NCBI GenBank assembly: GCA_964540995.1
Contig: CAZIOU010000003.1
Span: 576-64,575, forward strand
DNA: 64,000 nt
Origin: an uncultured Gammaproteobacteria bacterium
GTDB taxonomy: Bacteria; Patescibacteriota; Patescibacteriia; UBA1558; 2-01-FULL-52-15
Direction: 5' to 3'
Under the pieces are notes generated by a model. The model did not search any database. It was not told where the DNA came from and worked only from the letters and a program-made list of their open reading frames with translations. Below, one piece after another: positions 6,492 through 57,423 of the stretch. Within the stretch, counting starts at the first letter, position 1. Every line of letters starts with the position of its first letter. The position numbers and the translations under genes are program-made.

Positions 6492-6560
6492 GTAGTGTAA
6501 TAATAGGTCGTATCGTACGTCTTCAATAGTAGCGAACTTATAATTTATCAATATTAACCT

Positions 6561-7052
6561 ATGAAACGAGCTATTATTTCCATCCTTGTCACTATTGTGG
6601 CTTTGGGCGGAATCATCTATTTTGGTTATCAGAGCAGCTGGTGGCAGAATCCGTCACCAACCGCCGTAGTGCCAGAAGCCGAAGTAAAAACCCCTGTTGT
6701 CGAGGCTGCCAGTACTAAAGTGGTTTCACAGAAAAATAAAGAAGAAAAAGATTTTAATAAGAAAACCTACCAACAGTTAGTAGCAGAGTACAAAGGTCGT
6801 AGATTTCAAATTCAGGATTGTACCTCAACTCCTAACCAAGTTACTTTCAAGAGCGGTACCACCATCATGTTAGATGGTTTCTCCGCCGATCCACAGAAGA
6901 TAACTATCGGGACTCAATCGGTGGTTTTGAACGGTTATGACGTAGCCTTCATGACATTGAAGAGTACCAAATTACCGACAACGTTGACGATTGATTGTCT
7001 CTGGCTTGATCAACCTCAATACAATATAGCGACTATTTTACTCCAAGCCTAA
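6561..7052 (+). CDS. hypothetical N-terminally anchored protein
   Basis: 163 aa with an N-terminal TM helix. Confidence 0.5.
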   Translation: MKRAIISILVTIVALGGIIYFGYQSSWWQNPSPTAVVPEAEVKTPVVEAASTKVVSQKNKEEKDFNKKTYQQLVAEYKGRRFQIQDCTSTPNQVTFKSGTTIMLDGFSADPQKITIGTQSVVLNGYDVAFMTLKSTKLPTTLTIDCLWLDQPQYNIATILLQA

Positions 7053-7336: not shown

Positions 7337-8461
7337 TTATATGGCATCGACGCCAATGGCCTGATGAATATTGTTGTAGCCATCTCGTCGTAGGAGTTCA
7401 ACTAAGCCATCATTAATTTGACCTGGCAGTTGTGGGCCTTGAAATATAAGGCCAGTGATTAATTGGATCAAGCTGGCTCCTAATTTGATTTTGGTATAAG
7501 CATCTTTAGCTGAGAAGACACCGCCACAGCCGATGATGATTAGTTGTTGGCCGTATTTCTGATAGGTTAACTTGATCAACTCATTGGAACGGTTCCAGGT
7601 TGGTTTACCACTAAAATTGCCTATTGGATATTTAGCTAGTTCTGCGGGTACGAATTCTGGTACGGTTCGATCTTTTTGTAAATTACCGATGATAACACCA
7701 GCGATTGGGAACTGACTGATGACTTCAACCATGGCTAACGTTTCCTCGTCATTTTTTTCAATCGGCATTTTGATGAACAGTGCCTTGGTCAGGTTCAAGG
7801 CCGTAACAGCGGCCAGTAATTCGCGCAGTCGCTCCGGTTCGTAGAAGCTGATATTACCGATCAGATTGGGACAGCTGATATTTAGTTCGTAATAACTAAA
7901 GGGGATAGAGGAAGCTTCAGTTTGGCGAAAGGAGGCGATGATATCTTCGATGGCTTGTTCTTGGGTCATGGCCTCGTTGGTATTAGTTTTTCCGATACTG
8001 ATACCGACCGGGTGATTGAATTGAAGTGGCTGCAATTTGGTTAAGGTCTTGCCGATACCACCATTCTTATAGCCCTTGTTGACCATTAGCGATCGTGAGC
8101 GTACCAGACGTCCCAGACGAGGCTTAGGATTGCCCTCATAGGCCTTCTGGGTGATGGTGCCGATACTTCCGAAGCCAAAGCCCATGCTGGGTAGTATTTG
8201 TGTCAGCTGAGCCAGATAATCAAATCCTGCTGATAATCCAATGGGATTAGCGAAGTGAATACCGGCAATAGTTTGTTCTAGTGATTTGTCCTTAACTTGC
8301 CACAGACCTGCCAATATCCGACGCATTATTTTTGACCGGCCCATAAGTTCACCTTGACTGACAAGGAATTCATGGATTGTTTCGGAATCAAATGAGAAAA
8401 AAACCGGGCGAATAATGTAACGGTATTTCCAAGCAAAGATACGCAGGAAAAGATGTTTCAT
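7337..8461 (-). CDS. pyrD: dihydroorotate dehydrogenase (quinone), class 2
   Basis: 'FANPIGLSAGFD', 'GFGFGSIGTIT..GNPKPR', 'NISCPN', 'IIGCGGVFSAKDA..LGASLIQLITGLIF.GP'. Confidence 0.85.
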   Translation of the reverse strand: MKHLFLRIFAWKYRYIIRPVFFSFDSETIHEFLVSQGELMGRSKIMRRILAGLWQVKDKSLEQTIAGIHFANPIGLSAGFDYLAQLTQILPSMGFGFGSIGTITQKAYEGNPKPRLGRLVRSRSLMVNKGYKNGGIGKTLTKLQPLQFNHPVGISIGKTNTNEAMTQEQAIEDIIASFRQTEASSIPFSYYELNISCPNLIGNISFYEPERLRELLAAVTALNLTKALFIKMPIEKNDEETLAMVEVISQFPIAGVIIGNLQKDRTVPEFVPAELAKYPIGNFSGKPTWNRSNELIKLTYQKYGQQLIIIGCGGVFSAKDAYTKIKLGASLIQLITGLIFQGPQLPGQINDGLVELLRRDGYNNIHQAIGVDAI

Positions 8462-8553
8462 ATTGAACTAATATGGCAGAAATAAGGGATAAAATCAACT
8501 GACAATCTCATTGACAATAAGACTAAATAATTGTATCTTTTCCTAGCAAATAT

Positions 8554-8640
8554 TCGGGGATCGCCACCCTTCGCTAAAGCTTCGGGCGGCAGGTCTAATG
8601 GTAGCCCACCAGAGGCGGGCAGGGACGACACGCGCGAGAA
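8554..8640 (+). pseudogene. decayed tRNA-Gln-like fragment with internal hairpin insertion
   Basis: Begins TCGGGGATCG (identical to the tRNA-Gln 5' end at 9025) and contains a D-loop-like AGGTCTAATGGTAG, interrupted by CCACCCTTCGCTAAAGCTTCGGGCGGC. Confidence 0.4.
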
Positions 8641-8728
8641 TTGTATTTAAAGTCAGGTATTGGCAGAGAAGAGAAACAAAAAATTATTACTTACTCGGGG
8701 ATCGTCTAATGGTAGGACGACAGGTTCT
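8638..8728 (+). repeat. 91-bp direct repeat copy 1 (leader plus tRNA-Gln 5' half to the anticodon loop)
   Basis: Near-identical (2 mismatches) to 8968-9058. Ends ...ACAGGTTCT inside the anticodon loop, then diverges into a perfect palindrome CCTGCCTGCCGGCAGGCAGG. Confidence 0.7.
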
Positions 8729-8766
8729 CCTGCCTGCCGGCAGGCAGGGGTCCTTCAAAGGGTTCG

Positions 8767-9039
8767 ATGGAGTTTAAAATGAAACACTGGGTATATATTC
8801 TGATAAGTGAGACTACAAAGAATTGGTCATATGTAGGTAGTACTTCAAACTTGCAAGAACGCCTATATAGACATAGTATTGGTAGGGTTAGTTCTACGAA
8901 AAGCAAGAGACCGTTGAAATGTATTTACAGTGAGATTCATTCTGACAGAACGCAGGCTTATAAACGGGAATTGTATTTAAAGTCGGGTATTGGTAGAGAA
9001 GAGAAACAAAAAATTATTACTTACTCGGGGATCGTCTAA
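8767..9039 (+). CDS. GIY-YIG nuclease family protein (small YhbQ/UPF0213-like)
   Basis: 'WVYILISE..SYVGSTSNLQERLYRH' GIY-YIG core. The ATG lies in a degenerate T-arm-like GGGTTCGATGG; the C-terminus is encoded by repeat copy 2. Confidence 0.75.
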   Translation: MEFKMKHWVYILISETTKNWSYVGSTSNLQERLYRHSIGRVSSTKSKRPLKCIYSEIHSDRTQAYKRELYLKSGIGREEKQKIITYSGIV

Positions 9040-9058
9040 TGGTAGGACGACAGGTTCT
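8968..9058 (+). repeat. 91-bp direct repeat copy 2 (overlaps GIY-YIG 3' end and the intact tRNA-Gln 5' half)
   Basis: See copy 1. Confidence 0.7.
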
Positions 9059-9098
9059 GGTCCTGTTAATTGGGGTTCGAGTCCCTATCCCCGAACCA
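9025..9098 (+). tRNA. tRNA-Gln (anticodon CUG)
   Basis: Hand-folded: acceptor UCGGGGA/UCCCCGA, U8, D-stem GUC/GAC with loop UAAUGGUAG, anticodon stem ACAGG/CCUGU with loop UUCUGGU, T-arm UGGGG-UUCGAGU-CCCUA, discriminator A, encoded CCA. Confidence 0.85.
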
Positions 9099-9162
9099 CC
9101 AGCCAGAGGCTGGTAAGGCGCGGCTACAAGGTAACTACTTTTCATTTAAATTATTATCAAAA

Positions 9163-9303
9163 CTTTTAGGGACTCGAACCCGGGAAGGGGTCGGGAAACG
9201 GGAGTTTCCCGTGGCGGAAGTACTGAAACCGAAGGGTTTCAGAATCACGCTTTAGCGTGATTGGGTTCTAGGAGTGAAACGACGGAGTCCCTATCCCCGA
9301 ACC
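9163..9303. pseudogene. tRNA-Gln-derived fragments (inverted T-arm copy; degenerate copy with insertions ending GAGTCCCTATCCCCGAACCA)
   Basis: 9163-9185 is the reverse complement of the tRNA-Gln T-arm. 9195-9303 has UCGGGAA ... UUGGGUUC[16-nt insert]GAGUCCCUAUCCCCGAACCA, identical over the last 20 nt to the real tRNA 3' end. Confidence 0.4.
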
Positions 9304-9422
9304 ACCCTGCGTCGTCCAAAGACGACTTCGGGTGGCCTCTGGCCATCCGACAACCGAAGGTTGTGCAGGGTAGTAACCCGAAGCTTTAAAGCGAAGGGTT
9401 ACAGGTTAGCAATTTATACATA

Positions 9423-10190
9423 ATGAAACTAATCTCACTCAACACATGGGGAGGACGGGCGGGGAAAGAAAAATTGTTAGATTTTTTTGCTAGATATCGC
9501 GACGTCGATATTTTTTGTTTGCAAGAAATTTGTGCTGGACCATTTCCCGAGCTTGAAGGTACTCAAGCAGGCGGTAAGACGCTTAAGCACGAAGAGGTGA
9601 TGGTATACGGAAGACAAGAGATTGCTGAGTTATTGAAGAATGACTATGTTTCTTTTTTTGATCCTCACTTCTTAGATATTTACGGTTTAATGCTGCTGAT
9701 GAAGAAAGATATTCCTGCAATTTCACAAGGAGATACATTTGTCTATCGCGAAAAAGGACACGTTCCCAGCGGTGATGCCGGTAATCATGCACGCAATATT
9801 CAGTACGCCACTATTCAGACCACGAAAGGCCCCGTGACTCTTGTTAACTTTCATGGATTGTGGAATGGCGGTGGCAAGGGCGATAGCGAAGATAGATTAT
9901 TACAGTCGGATCGTATTATTGAGTTTCTCAAATCTCTGACGAATCCATATATATTTTGTGGTGATTTTAATCTCAAGCCTGATACCGAAAGCTTGAAAAA
10001 GTTCGAAACATTGGGACTACGCAATTTGATCAAAGAATTCGGCATTACCTCCACCAGAACGAGCCTCTATACTAAGGAGGAGAAGTTTGCCGACTACACC
10101 TTCGTCAGTAATGGTATAATGGTTAAGGACTTCAAAGTATTGCCAGACGAGGTTTCTGATCATGCGGCAATGTATCTTGAATTTGACTAA
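9423..10190 (+). CDS. endonuclease/exonuclease/phosphatase (EEP) family protein
   Basis: 'LNTWGG', 'DIFCLQE', C-terminal 'SDHAAM'. Confidence 0.75.
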   Translation: MKLISLNTWGGRAGKEKLLDFFARYRDVDIFCLQEICAGPFPELEGTQAGGKTLKHEEVMVYGRQEIAELLKNDYVSFFDPHFLDIYGLMLLMKKDIPAISQGDTFVYREKGHVPSGDAGNHARNIQYATIQTTKGPVTLVNFHGLWNGGGKGDSEDRLLQSDRIIEFLKSLTNPYIFCGDFNLKPDTESLKKFETLGLRNLIKEFGITSTRTSLYTKEEKFADYTFVSNGIMVKDFKVLPDEVSDHAAMYLEFD

Positions 10191-45668: not shown

Positions 45669-45834
45669 AAAATAGAAGAAAGTAGAATGTAGAAAGAAGT
45701 AAGGGAAAGAAGCTAGAGTTTGCCCTTCCCTAATAACTAATAACGAATGACGAATATCAATTCAACCAGCTAGATTGCTTCCCTCATTGTCATGGTTCTA
45801 CAAGCTCACCATGACAATTCGGTCGCAATGACAG

Positions 45835-53910: not shown

Positions 53911-54054
53911 ATGGGCAGTATAGCAAATTAGACTAATTTATCTAGTGTTTTGGCAAGGGGAAGATAGGGAGCTCGCAAAGGGTAATTCGTAATACGTAAT
54001 GCGTAATTACGTGCTACACCTTACGTTGTACGCCGTACGTCTTACGCTTTACGT

Positions 54055-54100
54055 CTCTAAAAAAATCCCCCCATACACGAATGTACGAGGGGATGGTTGG
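54055..54100 (-). terminator. terminator (shared motif with 55195-55243)
   Basis: Minus strand: CCATCCCCTCGTACA..TGTATGGGGGGATTTTTTTAGAGA. Confidence 0.6.
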
Positions 54101-54970
54101 TCAGACTGGTTGCTCTTCGACTGGCTTTTGCTGTTCGGCAGCTTTGGCTTCAGCATCCAGAATTGCGGTGGCTTGATCGGCCCATCGAGCACGACGCAGG
54201 CTGCTCATGATGCGGAAGTCGTCCCAGATATGCAGTTTGAGTATTAGTTGCTCCAGCTCAACACGCATTCTGCGACCGACTTCGGATTTGATCTTGCCCT
54301 TCTCGGTTCGTTCTCGATTACTTCTTTCGATCACGACGCTGACCCCGATACCCAAGGTGTCGATTACCTGATTCATGTAGTCCTCGTCACCTTGGGCAGA
54401 ATAATGACCATTCATCCATACTAGTAGCTCTGTCGTAGACAGTCGGCCAACTGACCGTCCCAAATCATCAAGAAGTTGACACGTACTATTTGGAGTCCAG
54501 GCTTGTATTTTCTTCCATCTGTATTCACGGTCGTCAGTGCAAACAAACGAACACGACCGAAATATTCCGCGATTGCGAAGTTGGAGGATGAAGTGTCGGA
54601 TCTTGACCGCGTGTCGCTCGTCCAGCTCGTTGGCATAGTAGAAATACCATCCATCACCGATCTCTAAGGGTGCTATTAGATGTGTATGTTGTTTACCATT
54701 CACATCTTCGAACTGGTACACTTCCTGACCAATGACGGAGTAGCGAATTAGGTCACTGAGATTGATCAGGAACCAGAAAACACAGACAGCAGATAGCACG
54801 AAGCAAACTTCCTGTAGGATACCATTGTTGACATTACACATTATGCCCAGATAAATGGCACCGAAAAGCCATAGCGCTAGACTAGAAATACCTTTGGCAC
54901 ATGAATAACGCCACAACTCTTTTTCGCAGCCGCAGTTCCGTTGTTTGCTTTTTGCTTCTTCGTCTGACAT
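54101..54970 (-). CDS. membrane protein with N-terminal Cys cluster, 2 TM and a conserved C-terminal domain (tandem paralog 1)
   Basis: 'NCGCEKE..C', two TM helices, 'VYQFEDVNGKQHTHLIAPLEIGDGWYF' homologous to the downstream paralog. Confidence 0.55.
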   Translation of the reverse strand: MSDEEAKSKQRNCGCEKELWRYSCAKGISSLALWLFGAIYLGIMCNVNNGILQEVCFVLSAVCVFWFLINLSDLIRYSVIGQEVYQFEDVNGKQHTHLIAPLEIGDGWYFYYANELDERHAVKIRHFILQLRNRGIFRSCSFVCTDDREYRWKKIQAWTPNSTCQLLDDLGRSVGRLSTTELLVWMNGHYSAQGDEDYMNQVIDTLGIGVSVVIERSNRERTEKGKIKSEVGRRMRVELEQLILKLHIWDDFRIMSSLRRARWADQATAILDAEAKAAEQQKPVEEQPV

Positions 54971-55194
54971 TGATGCTCCTTAGGGTGAATCTGTATCTGG
55001 TTGTTAGATACTATTTCACCGGAAGAAGGTGCTAAGATAGGCCATTTCTGCGAGATGGCAGAACATTCCTATCAGAGCGGTGTAAATGAACTGTTGCAGT
55101 TTTACTATGGATGGAGTCATTTGTCAATCGTTATTAGTTATTAGGGTAGGTTGCCCTCTCTTCCCGAATAACGAGTAACTAATAAAAAATATCT

Positions 55195-55243
55195 CTCTTC
55201 AAAAAAATCCCCCCGCACTATGCGTACGAGGGGATGGTTATCA
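55195..55243 (-). terminator. terminator (paralogous to 54055-54100)
   Basis: Minus strand: CCATCCCCTCGTACGCATAGTGCGGGGGGATTTTTTTGAAG. Confidence 0.6.
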
Positions 55244-56089
55244 TCAGGCGACGGTTTCCGAAGGTTGCGTCGGTTCTGATGACAGCTGTTCTGCCGTGAG
55301 AGATGAACCAGGGTAGAGTCGCTTGAACTCCAATCCAGCAACTTCTTCCCATTCAGCGACTTGCTTCTGGTCACGGAATTGTGCCAAACTCTCCTCGAGT
55401 GTGCGTCTCATTGCTGCGGCATTGGGTGAGGGCTGCGTCTGCCGACCAAACTGCGCCTGACGTCTGGCCAGACACATGGCGACACCGAGACGGAAGGTGT
55501 GCTCCTGGTACTCAGACCAGTCGTCACAGGAGTTGATGATAGTTAAAGCCTCACCAACTGAGACTCTCGGTCCTCTATTACAGCGGTCTCGAAGTTCAAC
55601 CGAATCAGAGTGATACGCCGAGTAAGCTCGAATCTCTTTCCAGGAGTAATCGACGGGATTGAGCACATACGACCTTGTGTTTGACCAACCATTTGGGCGG
55701 ATAACTACGATATACTTTTTGATCTGGATCGCCGTTCCGTTGGGATTGTTGCAGTGCCAGATCTGACCGACACGGATCGGAAGCGTGACATGCAGATGTT
55801 CTACGCCTTTGGCATCTTGGAAAAGGTAGAGTTCCTGCTTGCTACTGCAAATCATAAGGATCACTGCGATGACCATACATATGAATGAAGTGGGTAGTAC
55901 GAATTGAGAGGAGTTAGGTGTTAGCTGTTGATTCTGCAATGAGTCAAATAGAGCGGCAATGAACAGTAGGATACTGATTAACCCAAAGATAATTGAGAAT
56001 TTGGCTGAATGCTTAAGCCGTTCCTCGGATTGAGAATCAGGAACTGTTACGCAATATTCACAGCCTGGTTTGTACATATTGAACCTCAC
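55244..56089 (-). CDS. membrane protein with N-terminal Cys cluster, 2 TM and a conserved C-terminal domain (tandem paralog 2)
   Basis: 'PGCEYC', two TM helices, 'LYLFQDAKGVEHLHVTLPIRVGQIWH'. Confidence 0.55.
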   Translation of the reverse strand: MRFNMYKPGCEYCVTVPDSQSEERLKHSAKFSIIFGLISILLFIAALFDSLQNQQLTPNSSQFVLPTSFICMVIAVILMICSSKQELYLFQDAKGVEHLHVTLPIRVGQIWHCNNPNGTAIQIKKYIVVIRPNGWSNTRSYVLNPVDYSWKEIRAYSAYHSDSVELRDRCNRGPRVSVGEALTIINSCDDWSEYQEHTFRLGVAMCLARRQAQFGRQTQPSPNAAAMRRTLEESLAQFRDQKQVAEWEEVAGLEFKRLYPGSSLTAEQLSSEPTQPSETVA

Positions 56090-56245
56090 GACGTCAGGCC
56101 AGATTCACCTAACGACAGAGTGCCAAGATACAGCCATCCCTATCAGTTGATTGGGCATTCCGTATCAGGGCGATGTGTAAATGAACTAGACCTACCCTAC
56201 TGATTTTCGTCTCTACCGTCAAGCCAACCTGCCTGCTGCAGCTTG

Positions 56246-56300
56246 TCGTTTCGACCGAAGTCCCGCTCGGGTGGGACGAGCAGAGAAACCTTTATTATAC
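56246..56300 (-). repeat. inverted copy of the GIY-YIG-flanking repeat
   Basis: GTCGTTTCGACC[hairpin]GAGCAGAGAAACCTTTATTATA equals revcomp of the conserved ends of 56856-56917. Confidence 0.6.
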
Positions 56301-56396
56301 TTTGGGTGGCAATACAGTATTTAGTAAAGGTTTCTCTGCTCGTTATCTTATGGATAGCTGGGAAAAGTCACAATCATAATTGGTTGCTGTGTAGTG

Positions 56397-56458
56397 TGTA
56401 ATAAAGGTTTCTCCGCTCTCTACGCCTGCGGCTTCGTTCGGTCGAAACGACAGAGCAA
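56397..56458 (+). repeat. direct repeat R1 flanking the GIY-YIG gene (3' side)
   Basis: GTGTAATAAAGGTTTCTCCGCTC[22-nt hairpin]GTCGAAACGACAGAGCA. Confidence 0.7.
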
Positions 56459-56460
56459 TA

Positions 56461-56787
56461 TTAATCTTCGCGAGGGACTATCTCCTCCCCCGTCAGAGCA
56501 AAGTCATACAAGTCGATGAATTTGGGATTATAGATTTGGATGAGTTGTAATTTTTTATTTCTGTTCCAGCGTTTGATTTGCTTCTCGCGCGCGATGGCCT
56601 CTAATGGACTACCATAATGTTGGAAGAAAAGCAGTTTGTGTGTATTGTAGTGGGCGCTAAAACTTCGAGGATTATATTTTGTCCGATGTTCATTAATTCG
56701 CCGCTCAATGTTATTCGTAATGCCCACGTAAATACAGGTATTGTATTTGTTACTAATTATATAGGTGGTGTAGATGCGATCTGGCAT
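56461..56787 (-). CDS. GIY-YIG nuclease family protein (second copy, diverged)
   Basis: 'IYTTYIISNKYNTCIYVGITNNIERRINEH'. Confidence 0.8.
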   Translation of the reverse strand: MPDRIYTTYIISNKYNTCIYVGITNNIERRINEHRTKYNPRSFSAHYNTHKLLFFQHYGSPLEAIAREKQIKRWNRNKKLQLIQIYNPKFIDLYDFALTGEEIVPRED

Positions 56788-56855
56788 TGGAGGTTAAATA
56801 AACTGTAATAATTTTTTTTGGCCTGTCTGGCTACGCAAACTTGGAGAAGTCTCGA

Positions 56856-56917
56856 TTATGTGTAATAAAGGTTTCTCCGCTCACCTCTCGCCGCGAGAGG
56901 TTTGGTCGAAACGACAG
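56856..56917 (+). repeat. direct repeat R2 flanking the GIY-YIG gene (5' side)
   Basis: TGTGTAATAAAGGTTTCTCCGCTC[ACCTCTCGCCGCGAGAGGTTTG]GTCGAAACGACAGAGCA. Ends are identical to R1; the middle hairpin differs. Confidence 0.7.
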
Positions 56918-56924
56918 AGCAGAA

Positions 56925-56960
56925 AATAAAACAAGGTATCGAATGATACCCTGTTTTTTG
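56925..56960. terminator. bidirectional terminator after rpsI
   Basis: CAAGGTATC-GAAT-GATACCCTG with A-tract 5' and T-tract 3'. Confidence 0.65.
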
Positions 56961-57018
56961 TAATATATTGTGTCTAGCGTTTCGACCATCCCCTCGGCTT
57001 TGCTCGGGGTTCCGCAAG

Positions 57019-57423
57019 CTAACGCTTGCTCCATTGAGGGGCGCGACGAGCACGTTTCAAACCTGGCTTCTTACGTTCTTTCTTGCGAGAATCGCGAGTG
57101 AGTAAACTATTTTTCTTCAAAGTAGATTTGACTGTCTCGTCCATTTTGAGTAGAGCGCGGGCAACAGCGTGACGGACAGCTTCTGATTGGGAAGATTTAC
57201 CACCACCGGAAACTTTGACGGAGATGTTCAACCGATCCTGACCCACTAGCTTCATTGGTTCGAGGATATTCTCTTGCCACTGGGCATAGGGGAAATACTG
57301 CTTCCAATCAACGTCATTGACGGTCATGGTGAAAGCCTGATCATCAGATTTGTTGATGCGTAGACGGGCAACAGCAGTTTTGCGGCGACCGACAGTGATA
57401 ATAGTGGTAGTTCGAGCAGTCAT
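57019..57423 (-). CDS. rpsI: 30S ribosomal protein S9
   Basis: C-terminal 'GLKRARRAPQWSKR'. Confidence 0.95.
   Translation of the reverse strand: MTARTTTIITVGRRKTAVARLRINKSDDQAFTMTVNDVDWKQYFPYAQWQENILEPMKLVGQDRLNISVKVSGGGKSSQSEAVRHAVARALLKMDETVKSTLKKNSLLTRDSRKKERKKPGLKRARRAPQWSKR

Follow-up and report, generated by a model that had tools for sequence, protein, structure and literature searches.

A probable Ssn-family GIY-YIG nuclease gene with variant hairpin repeats behind rpsI in a Patescibacteria genome

The probable ssn gene and its repeats

The DNA analysed here (the window) is a stretch of 64,000 nucleotides from contig CAZIOU010000003.1 of assembly GCA_964540995.1, which is labelled as an uncultured Gammaproteobacteria bacterium; matches of its ribosomal protein S9 place the organism within Patescibacteria, near Komeilibacteria. 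Downstream of the S9 gene, rpsI, an open reading frame (ORF) for a small GIY-YIG protein is surrounded by copies of a short repeat with constant ends and a variable centre. Chenal et al. (Nat Commun 2025, PMC11893778) have described the Ssn proteins, single-domain GIY-YIG nucleases of approximately 94 residues (CDD cd10448), which bind an oriented hairpin repeat as single-stranded DNA (ssDNA) only and cut a few nucleotides upstream of it. We consider it highly probable that the ORF in the window, here called ssn, encodes an Ssn-family nuclease, that the repeats are its cognate Ssn-related motifs (SRMs), and that together they form a discrete cassette that was inserted once after rpsI.

The Pfam GIY-YIG domain covers residues 6–80 of the window protein, and the only other Pfam matches are to GIY-YIG-type families (PF10544 and PF20815). 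NCBIfam gave sub-threshold matches only, a word-indexed protein search returned just 6 relatives, and the sole relevant match in a sequence search of the PDB was UPF0213 protein BH0048 (E = 0.003); the top PDB matches, to WD40 repeats, are an artefact of many weak repeated matches. By tblastn against a 7.3-Gb plasmid collection, we found GIY-YIG genes of Shinella (E = 1e-17), Azospirillum (9e-17) and Planktothrix (5e-15) as well as an ssnA ortholog of Neisseria gonorrhoeae (2e-11). The gonococcal matches are two 2.17-Mb N. gonorrhoeae chromosomes that are filed as plasmids in PLSDB (L028, NZ_CP119142.1). The ssnA ortholog in L028 (NZ_CP119142.1) is unannotated, and its frame starts at ATT rather than ATG. 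It was recognised by its length of 94 residues, the positions of Y6, Y17 and E64, and the flanking copies of the Neisseria repeat, NTS (7–8 copies within 750 bp of the gene), and it stands in here for SsnA of N. meningitidis. Pairwise BLASTP of the window protein with this ortholog gave 37% identity over 90 residues (E = 1e-20). Window residues Y9, Y20 and E68 align with Y6, Y17 and E64 of SsnA and are invariant columns in an alignment of 12 sequences. The alignment is full-length, with a C-terminal signature (W-NR-KK-LI-NP-DL) common to the window protein and the Ssn homologues. The window protein is therefore like Ssn in being a single-domain GIY-YIG protein of approximately 100 residues with the catalytic Tyr, Tyr and Glu conserved; it is unlike SsnA in its 14-residue C-terminal extension. 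The Shinella and Azospirillum genes have four canonical SRMs each, arranged as inverted pairs on both sides.

A first-pass annotation of this DNA had described two 62-bp repeats with identical ends and differing 22-nt centres on either side of the ORF. These are evident in the sequence at the sites given, although the positions needed shifting by 1 nt for R1 (56396–56457) and by 4 nt for R2 (56860–56921). Both are built as GTGTAATAAAGGTTTCTCCGCTC-(22 nt)-GTCGAAACGACAGAGCA, the centres being unrelated in sequence, and the R1 repeat begins 3 nt past the ssn stop codon. The 5′ end of the repeat has 5 matches in the window at 3 or fewer mismatches, where 0.62 are expected, and none of 100 shuffles reached 5; the 3′ end has 2 matches, with 0.08 expected. 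The inverted third copy and the partial copies reported earlier are also real and were located by a repeat finder at 56244–56300, 56322–56343 and 56972–56988. We take the partial copy at 56322–56343 to be the half that has stayed intact in a decayed full copy, C1, reaching to approximately 56385; C1 is also present in the related locus L011, introduced below. The partial copy C4 directly adjoins the rpsI stop codon. The motifs within R2, R1 and the inverted copy C0 (Table 1) are 46 nt each, and copies lie on both sides of the ORF within 130 bp. C0 and R2 would be the inverted pair that bounds a unit at 56245–56915, with R1 and C1 then internal.

Table 1. Positions of the ssn gene, the motif copies and other features of the window.
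Feature	Position	Strand	Details
ssn, 108-residue single-domain GIY-YIG protein, probable Ssn family	56461..56787	(-)	Pfam PF01541, E = 2.5e-16
R2, variant Ssn-related motif upstream of ssn	56870..56915	(-), strand of the gene	GTC-GTTTC-GACCAAA-(8-bp hairpin)-TGAGCGGA-GAAAC-C
R1, variant motif	56406..56451	(-), strand of the gene	GTC 9 nt past the ssn stop codon; distal hairpin weak
C0, inverted variant motif, outermost copy downstream of ssn	56245..56290	(+)	
C1, decayed copy	56322..56385	(-)	3′ half GAGCAGAGAAACCTTTAC intact at 56322–56343, 5′ half degenerate
C4, partial inverted copy, without the 3′ half	56972..57015	(+)	GTC, 4 extra bases, GTTTCGACC, hairpin
Solo motif of the same architecture	45773..45832	(-)	GTC-ATTGC-GACCGAA-(10-bp hairpin)-TGAGGGAA-GCAAT-C
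Terminator-like hairpin and T run ending the rpsI operon	56928..56957	(-)	Between C4 and R2
rpsI (S9), conserved upstream neighbour defining the slot	57019..57423	(-)	Pfam PF00380, E = 1.6e-41, and synteny
Variable segment, from C0 to the conserved promoter region of a flippase-like gene	53976..56244	(-)	Context, outside the unit
tRNA-Gln locus, first GIY-YIG locus of the window	8460–9430		90-residue GIY-YIG ORF

Hairpin architecture and relation to the Neisseria repeat

The informative strand of the repeats is the coding strand of ssn, opposite to the one on which they were first read. On this strand the copies follow YGTC-RTTTC-GA-CYR-RA-(variable distal hairpin)-GNAG-YRG-A-GAAAY-C, which is predicted to form a two-part hairpin. 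Its basal stem of 5 bp is followed by a GA/A junction and a middle stem of 3 bp, beyond which an internal loop leads to a distal stem-loop whose sequence is free. Placed side by side, the frames are GTC-ATTCC...GGAAT-C for NTS, GTC-GTTTC...GAAAC-C for the window and GTC-ATTTC...GAAAT-C for L012, a related locus in a Komeilibacteria metagenome-assembled genome (MAG). Copies from Patescibacteria carry in addition a conserved 3′ extension, CTTTATTAC, after the stem.

Covariation was assessed across 22 aligned copies drawn from six genomes. No copy deviates at the GTC, at the C following the stem, or at the junction, where GA follows the basal stem and an A precedes its 3′ strand. The basal stems covary (GTTTC/GAAAC, ATTTC/GAAAT, ACTTC/GAAGT, GCTTC/GAAGC and ATTGC/GCAAT). 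In the proposed structure 92.4% of cells are paired, compared to 31–59% with slid partners, and double-change cells number 48 versus 6–13 in the slid controls. None of 500 shuffles reached the observed covariation values, compensatory change is seen at 9 of the 13 base pairs, and G-T (G-U in RNA) pairs are frequent in the middle stem. The first-pass claim that structure is kept while sequence changes is borne out by this covariation. Its companion, that each centre folds as a hairpin, fits the family as a whole: in 57 distinct copies, the mean length of the best Watson-Crick distal stem is 5.0 bp, versus 3.1 bp after shuffling, with at least 10 different stem sequences. It also fits R2 (8 bp) and the inverted copy (5–7 bp), but applies weakly to R1, whose stem is interrupted (3 + 3 bp; DNA fold z-score +0.11). 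When the R1 distal hairpin (56419–56435) is set beside its L011 orthologue (6550–6570), a block of approximately 17 nt differs while the motif ends are unchanged, in loci that are approximately 87% identical; judged from this pair, the motif centre seems to change by replacement and not by point mutation.

The Neisseria repeat NTS is CGTCATTCCCGCGMAVGCGGGAATCYRG, and the published degenerate SRM pattern, HGTCWYN(0-2)YYVSBRHN(0-5)WNVSBRGN(0-2)RNCYNB, places a repeat near 71% of homologous genes and on both sides of 42% (PMC11893778). For SsnA, the three bases before the palindrome have the largest effect on cleavage and the C just after it has the largest effect on binding (PMC11893778). The invariant positions of the window motif are those found critical for cleavage and binding in that study, and they therefore count in favour of SRM membership. 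The likeness extends to the frame of GTC plus stem and stem plus C, and to the arrangement, with a gene bracketed by oriented hairpin repeats, clusters in both orientations and solo copies elsewhere. Unlike NTS, the window motif has a stem of 5 bp before the conserved GA/A junction, and the loop is replaced by the middle stem, the internal loop and a free distal hairpin, making the motif 46 nt long compared to about 25–28 nt. The setting also departs from that in Neisseria, with a Patescibacteria host, few copies and the CTTTATTAC extension on the motifs. The pairing of SRMs with their gene was published in 2025; the window locus is a further example with an unusual two-part hairpin, and no new type of element.

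How far this architecture extends was followed with a generalised rule (GTC, 5 bases with R then Y first, a gap of 3–55 nt, the reverse complement of the 5 bases, then C). A motif of this kind lies within 500 bp of 24 of 26 metagenomic ssn homologues (39–59% identical), and on both sides in 18 of the 26, with a chance expectation of 0.11 per locus; the published pattern matches 2 of the same 26 loci. On viral contigs, 27 of 37 homologues have one within 300 bp, the usual geometry there being a plus-strand motif upstream and a minus-strand motif downstream. Many of the motifs near homologues have short loops (GTC-ATTCC-GAACGAAGTGA-GGAAT-C), whereas in others a hairpin of variable length is inserted at this site, so that a variable centre is general for this branch.

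The same rule found the solo motif of the window, 10.6 kb away from the ssn cluster; nearly all other copies in the window lie within 800 bp of the ORF. The solo motif begins 2 nt past the stop codon of a 268-residue ORF, has a terminator-like hairpin downstream, and has a basal stem (ATTGC/GCAAT) unlike that of the cluster copies. This basal-stem type is the one seen in motifs around other Ssn genes (L032, L045 and L052), and from it the genome may encode a second Ssn elsewhere. A further match to the rule, at 9235–9283 beside the GIY-YIG gene of the tRNA-Gln locus, was rejected: it is without the invariant GA/A junction, and approximately 6 chance matches are expected per window.

The first-pass annotation had proposed looking for the repeat beyond this locus. 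A scan of GTDB species genomes with GGTTTCTCYGCTC-N(12-36)-GGTCGAAAC found it at 27 loci in several phyla, where approximately 1 is expected by our own rough estimate. L011 and L012 have the arrangement of the window (rpsI, terminator, repeat, GIY-YIG gene, repeat). Single or clustered copies are present in Alphaproteobacteria and other phyla, and one Pseudomonadota MAG (CP170502.1) has many tandem arrays, the longest with 9 copies, which repeat every 100–190 bp or so (L001, L004, L006–L010, L014–L019, L021–L024 and L026–L027). Its stem variants are compensatory within a single genome (GCGGC/GCCGC, GCCGC/GCGGC, GCGTC/GACGC and GTGGC/GCCAC). When the 27 motif loci were searched with the ORF by tblastn, only L011 and L012 gave a match; the others are solo clusters or arrays that lack an ssn gene within 8 kb.

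From the homology to SsnA of N. meningitidis, we propose that the motif folds when the DNA becomes single-stranded and that the window protein would bind the hairpin in this form only, recognising the basal stem together with the GTC that precedes it and the C that follows it. The cut would then fall a few nucleotides 5′ of the GTC. Given that the NTS loop is dispensable for SsnA and can carry extensions (PMC11893778), the distal hairpin, which would occupy the position of that loop, would be free to vary. The cellular role could be, for example, the restricting or shaping of recombination of incoming or replicating ssDNA.

Several observations weigh against the assignment of the repeats to the SRMs and against the proposed fold. 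The published SRM pattern has no match in the 64-kb window, and motif membership therefore rests on the generalised reading. Only one further copy is present in the 64 kb, compared to hundreds of copies in Neisseria. Folding of the window copies as ssDNA does not strongly favour the two-part hairpin (z-scores of −1.6 to +0.1), and minimum free energy structures often use a competing GTCG/CGAC mini-hairpin. Since free-energy folding does not single out the two-part hairpin, the case for it rests on covariation. The competing GTCG-AAA-CGAC element, at the 3′ end of the repeat as first read, is probably incidental, because its bases belong to the GTC trinucleotide and to the basal stem GTTTC/GAAAC that joins the repeat ends. 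Finally, the activity of SsnA is abolished when the stem sequence is changed with the structure kept (PMC11893778), and for this reason we can only infer that the window protein tolerates a variable distal stem.

Cassette limits, empty sites and possible mobility

The gene order of rpsI followed by a flippase-like gene is conserved among the related genomes, and the slot between them varies. It contains SRM-ssn-SRM only in L037 and L066/L067, SRM-ssn-SRM plus membrane-protein genes in the window, L011 and L012, an 88-bp spacer with a terminator only in L068, and unrelated small ORFs in L069/L070. The loci without ssn are those with the most distant backbones, so that one old insertion followed by vertical descent suffices. 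On this view, a Komeilibacteria-like lineage would have acquired the cassette behind rpsI in a single insertion and inherited it in place since. With the same slot occupied in five related genomes (six contigs), recent movement is not supported in the lineage of the window. Despite its Gammaproteobacteria label, L011 (CAZPQR010000033.1) is collinear with the window (approximately 87% identity) and encodes an S9 that shares 99% identity with that of the window; it is probably mis-binned Patescibacteria DNA. One discordance concerns L012, the closest backbone after L011: its S9 is 88–90% identical to that of the window, compared to 64–67% for L037/L066, whereas its Ssn is the most divergent of the five (66% identity, versus 71% for L066 and 74.5% for L037). 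These sequence identities could reflect either a fast-evolving Ssn or an exchanged cassette.

In more distant relatives the unit is seen as a separable block. The sufBCD operon of Azospirillum lipoferum 4B (L031) has two SRMs, ssn and two further SRMs between sufB and sufC, the block following the sufB stop codon immediately. Flanks 95–96% identical to these are present in A. ramasamyi and strain B510 (L064 and L065), where the whole block of approximately 530 bp is absent. Two loci on different contigs of one metagenome, L041 and L043, have only a 388-bp block in common, at 97% identity. The block runs from the GTC of the upstream motif to the GAC of the inverted downstream motif, and its neighbours are unrelated, with methylglyoxal synthase-like and lipid kinase-like genes in one contig and 2-oxoacid:ferredoxin oxidoreductase genes in the other. 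The same limits apply in L039, L040, L042 and L046. These data argue well for a discrete unit that has been moved or exchanged in relatives, but do not show by what means. They also correct the earlier view that the unit is bounded by the direct repeats R1 and R2: the unit ends in relatives are inverted repeats, and the corresponding pair here would be R2 and the inverted copy. The Azospirillum insertion after a stop codon has parallels in the window, where the solo motif and the GTC of R1 are close to stop codons, and the siting of motifs and cassettes may show a preference for gene ends.

With the bounding motifs inverted, the nuclease would cut one strand just beyond one end of the unit and the other strand just beyond the other end. 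The cut predicted by C0 coincides with the junction to the 2.3-kb variable segment. This segment has two paralogous membrane-protein ORFs (54101–54970 and 55244–56089), neither with a Pfam family; it is absent in L037 and L066, and L012 has a different 2.9-kb segment encoding distant relatives of the same proteins. The arrangement recalls the dRS3 repeats of Neisseria, which cluster around variable genes, often for membrane proteins (PMC11893778); in the window the outer motif adjoins a variable segment with two membrane-protein genes, but the repeat has another sequence and is present in far fewer copies. The segment ends distally in a run of imperfect short repeats containing TACG/TTACG (53985–54060; GTAATACGTAATGCGTAATTACGTGC...CTTACGCTTTACGTC).

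An extension of our explanation, overlapping with it and not replacing it, is that SRM-ssn-SRM is an active autonomous mobile element, with the inverted motifs as terminal repeats and Ssn cutting by each GTC on opposite strands. Such a reading would account for the exact 388-bp block in unrelated contexts with like limits in four other loci, for the filled and empty sufB-sufC sites, for the empty slot after rpsI in L068, for the usual plus-then-minus motif geometry and for the failure of Ssn identity to track S9 identity in L012. We nevertheless regard it as tentative and, on balance, improbable. The shared slot in the window, L011, L012, L037 and L066/L067 needs only one old insertion, no target-site duplication is visible at the metagenomic GTC-to-GAC blocks, and strand-transfer or ligation activity is not known for a nuclease of 100 residues. 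Recombination between dispersed SRMs could also give sharp block limits, and metagenome contigs cannot place both contexts in one genome. The first-pass idea of a family of small mobile GIY-YIG cassettes is thus partly supported, by the published association of Ssn and SRM, the empty sites and the 388-bp block; in this lineage the position is fixed. The bolder proposal of a distinct minimal class of mobile elements, in which a gene of approximately 300 bp has outer GTCs as exact ends, is moved or exchanged through opposite-strand Ssn cuts just outside these ends on ssDNA, and has the two-part hairpin as the common form outside Proteobacteria, is a speculation to which we give somewhat less credence still.

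Known systems offer partial parallels. As in REP/BIME elements with RAYT (TnpA-REP) and in IS200/IS605 transposons (IS, insertion sequence), a small nuclease encoded alongside would recognise short imperfect palindromes in the form of ssDNA hairpins, the repeats are clustered in alternating orientation, and the nuclease gene is flanked by repeats of its own. The enzyme here is of the GIY-YIG type and not an HUH Y1 transposase; none of the latter (TnpA/RAYT) is encoded inside the repeats, where the sole ORF is the GIY-YIG gene. In IS200/IS605, moreover, both hairpins are on the same strand whereas the bounding motifs here are inverted, and transposition chemistry is not known for Ssn.

Alternative readings and what the family adds

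The repeats could instead act as RNA, either as small RNAs or as hairpins in the 5′ and 3′ untranslated regions of an ssn transcript, with a part in its stability, termination or regulation. R2 and R1 on the coding strand are suitably placed for this, R2 gives a good RNA fold on that strand (−26 kcal/mol; z-score −4.5), CTTTATTAC after the stem in the Patescibacteria copies resembles a short U tract, and the frequent G-T/G-U pairs in the middle stem would suit RNA. However, a proper T run after the hairpins is missing, motifs occur in both orientations within one cluster, and gene-less tandem arrays of up to 9 copies are present in the Pseudomonadota genome. The same frame is, moreover, the proven ssDNA site of SsnA, which does not bind RNA (PMC11893778). 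The repeats match no Rfam family: a scan of the whole window at gathering thresholds found the tRNA-Gln only, and a permissive scan of 56100–57100 gave chance-level microRNA-like matches on a long inverted repeat at 56276–56343. We therefore think an RNA function quite unlikely. A hammerhead or other small ribozyme, prompted by the CGAAAC in the repeat, was rejected, there being no CUGAUGA core and no Rfam match.

That the repeats are a functionless local tandem duplication around the ORF, the case that the first-pass annotation had named as its refutation, is very improbable: nearly all copies in the window lie within 800 bp of the ORF, but the motif recurs in several phyla and beside homologues, a solo copy lies 10.6 kb away, the hairpin is maintained by covariation, and identical ends with fully different centres are not produced by simple duplication plus drift. 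Just as implausible are a GIY-YIG homing endonuclease with double-stranded DNA targets or an integron-like cassette with attC sites. GIY-YIG domains are common in homing endonucleases, but this protein of 108 residues is a nuclease domain only, with no DNA-binding domain among its Pfam matches and no intron or intein context, the gene lying downstream of the rpsI terminator. The motif is like attC in its pairing conserved ends, its variable structured centre and its predicted recognition as a folded single strand; it is unlike attC in that the ends are GTC.../...GAC and not RYYYAAC/GTTRRRY cores, and the neighbours are ribosomal and membrane-protein genes with neither a cassette array nor a tyrosine recombinase among them, although no integrase scan of the whole window was made. 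A literature search for the repeat sequence returned primer coincidences only.

The first-pass annotation had also counted the tRNA-Gln locus as another cassette of the same kind, which does not hold. The GIY-YIG protein there is 22% identical to the window Ssn, its match to SsnA is confined to the N-terminal 65 residues, and it is without the Ssn C-terminal region. Its repeats are of another kind: a 94-nt direct repeat (8635–8728 and 8965–9058; 97% identical) that comprises the 3′ end of the ORF and the 5′ half of the tRNA-Gln, and 22 nt from the tRNA 3′ end, repeated exactly at 9079–9100 and 9285–9306. The locus looks like an insertion into, or a duplication of, the tRNA gene, with a protein that is not Ssn-like.

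Taken by itself, the rpsI locus is one more pair of Ssn and SRM and answers no open question. It does extend the Ssn family and its repeats to Patescibacteria, and its relatives indicate that the published pattern misses a large branch of the family, with 2 of 26 loci detected compared to 24 of 26 by a simple rule. A variable distal hairpin at the position of the NTS loop would mean a wider set of enzyme and site pairs as ssDNA tools. The precise GTC-to-GAC limits, together with the empty sites, make the "IS-like" idea of Chenal et al. (PMC11893778) directly testable.

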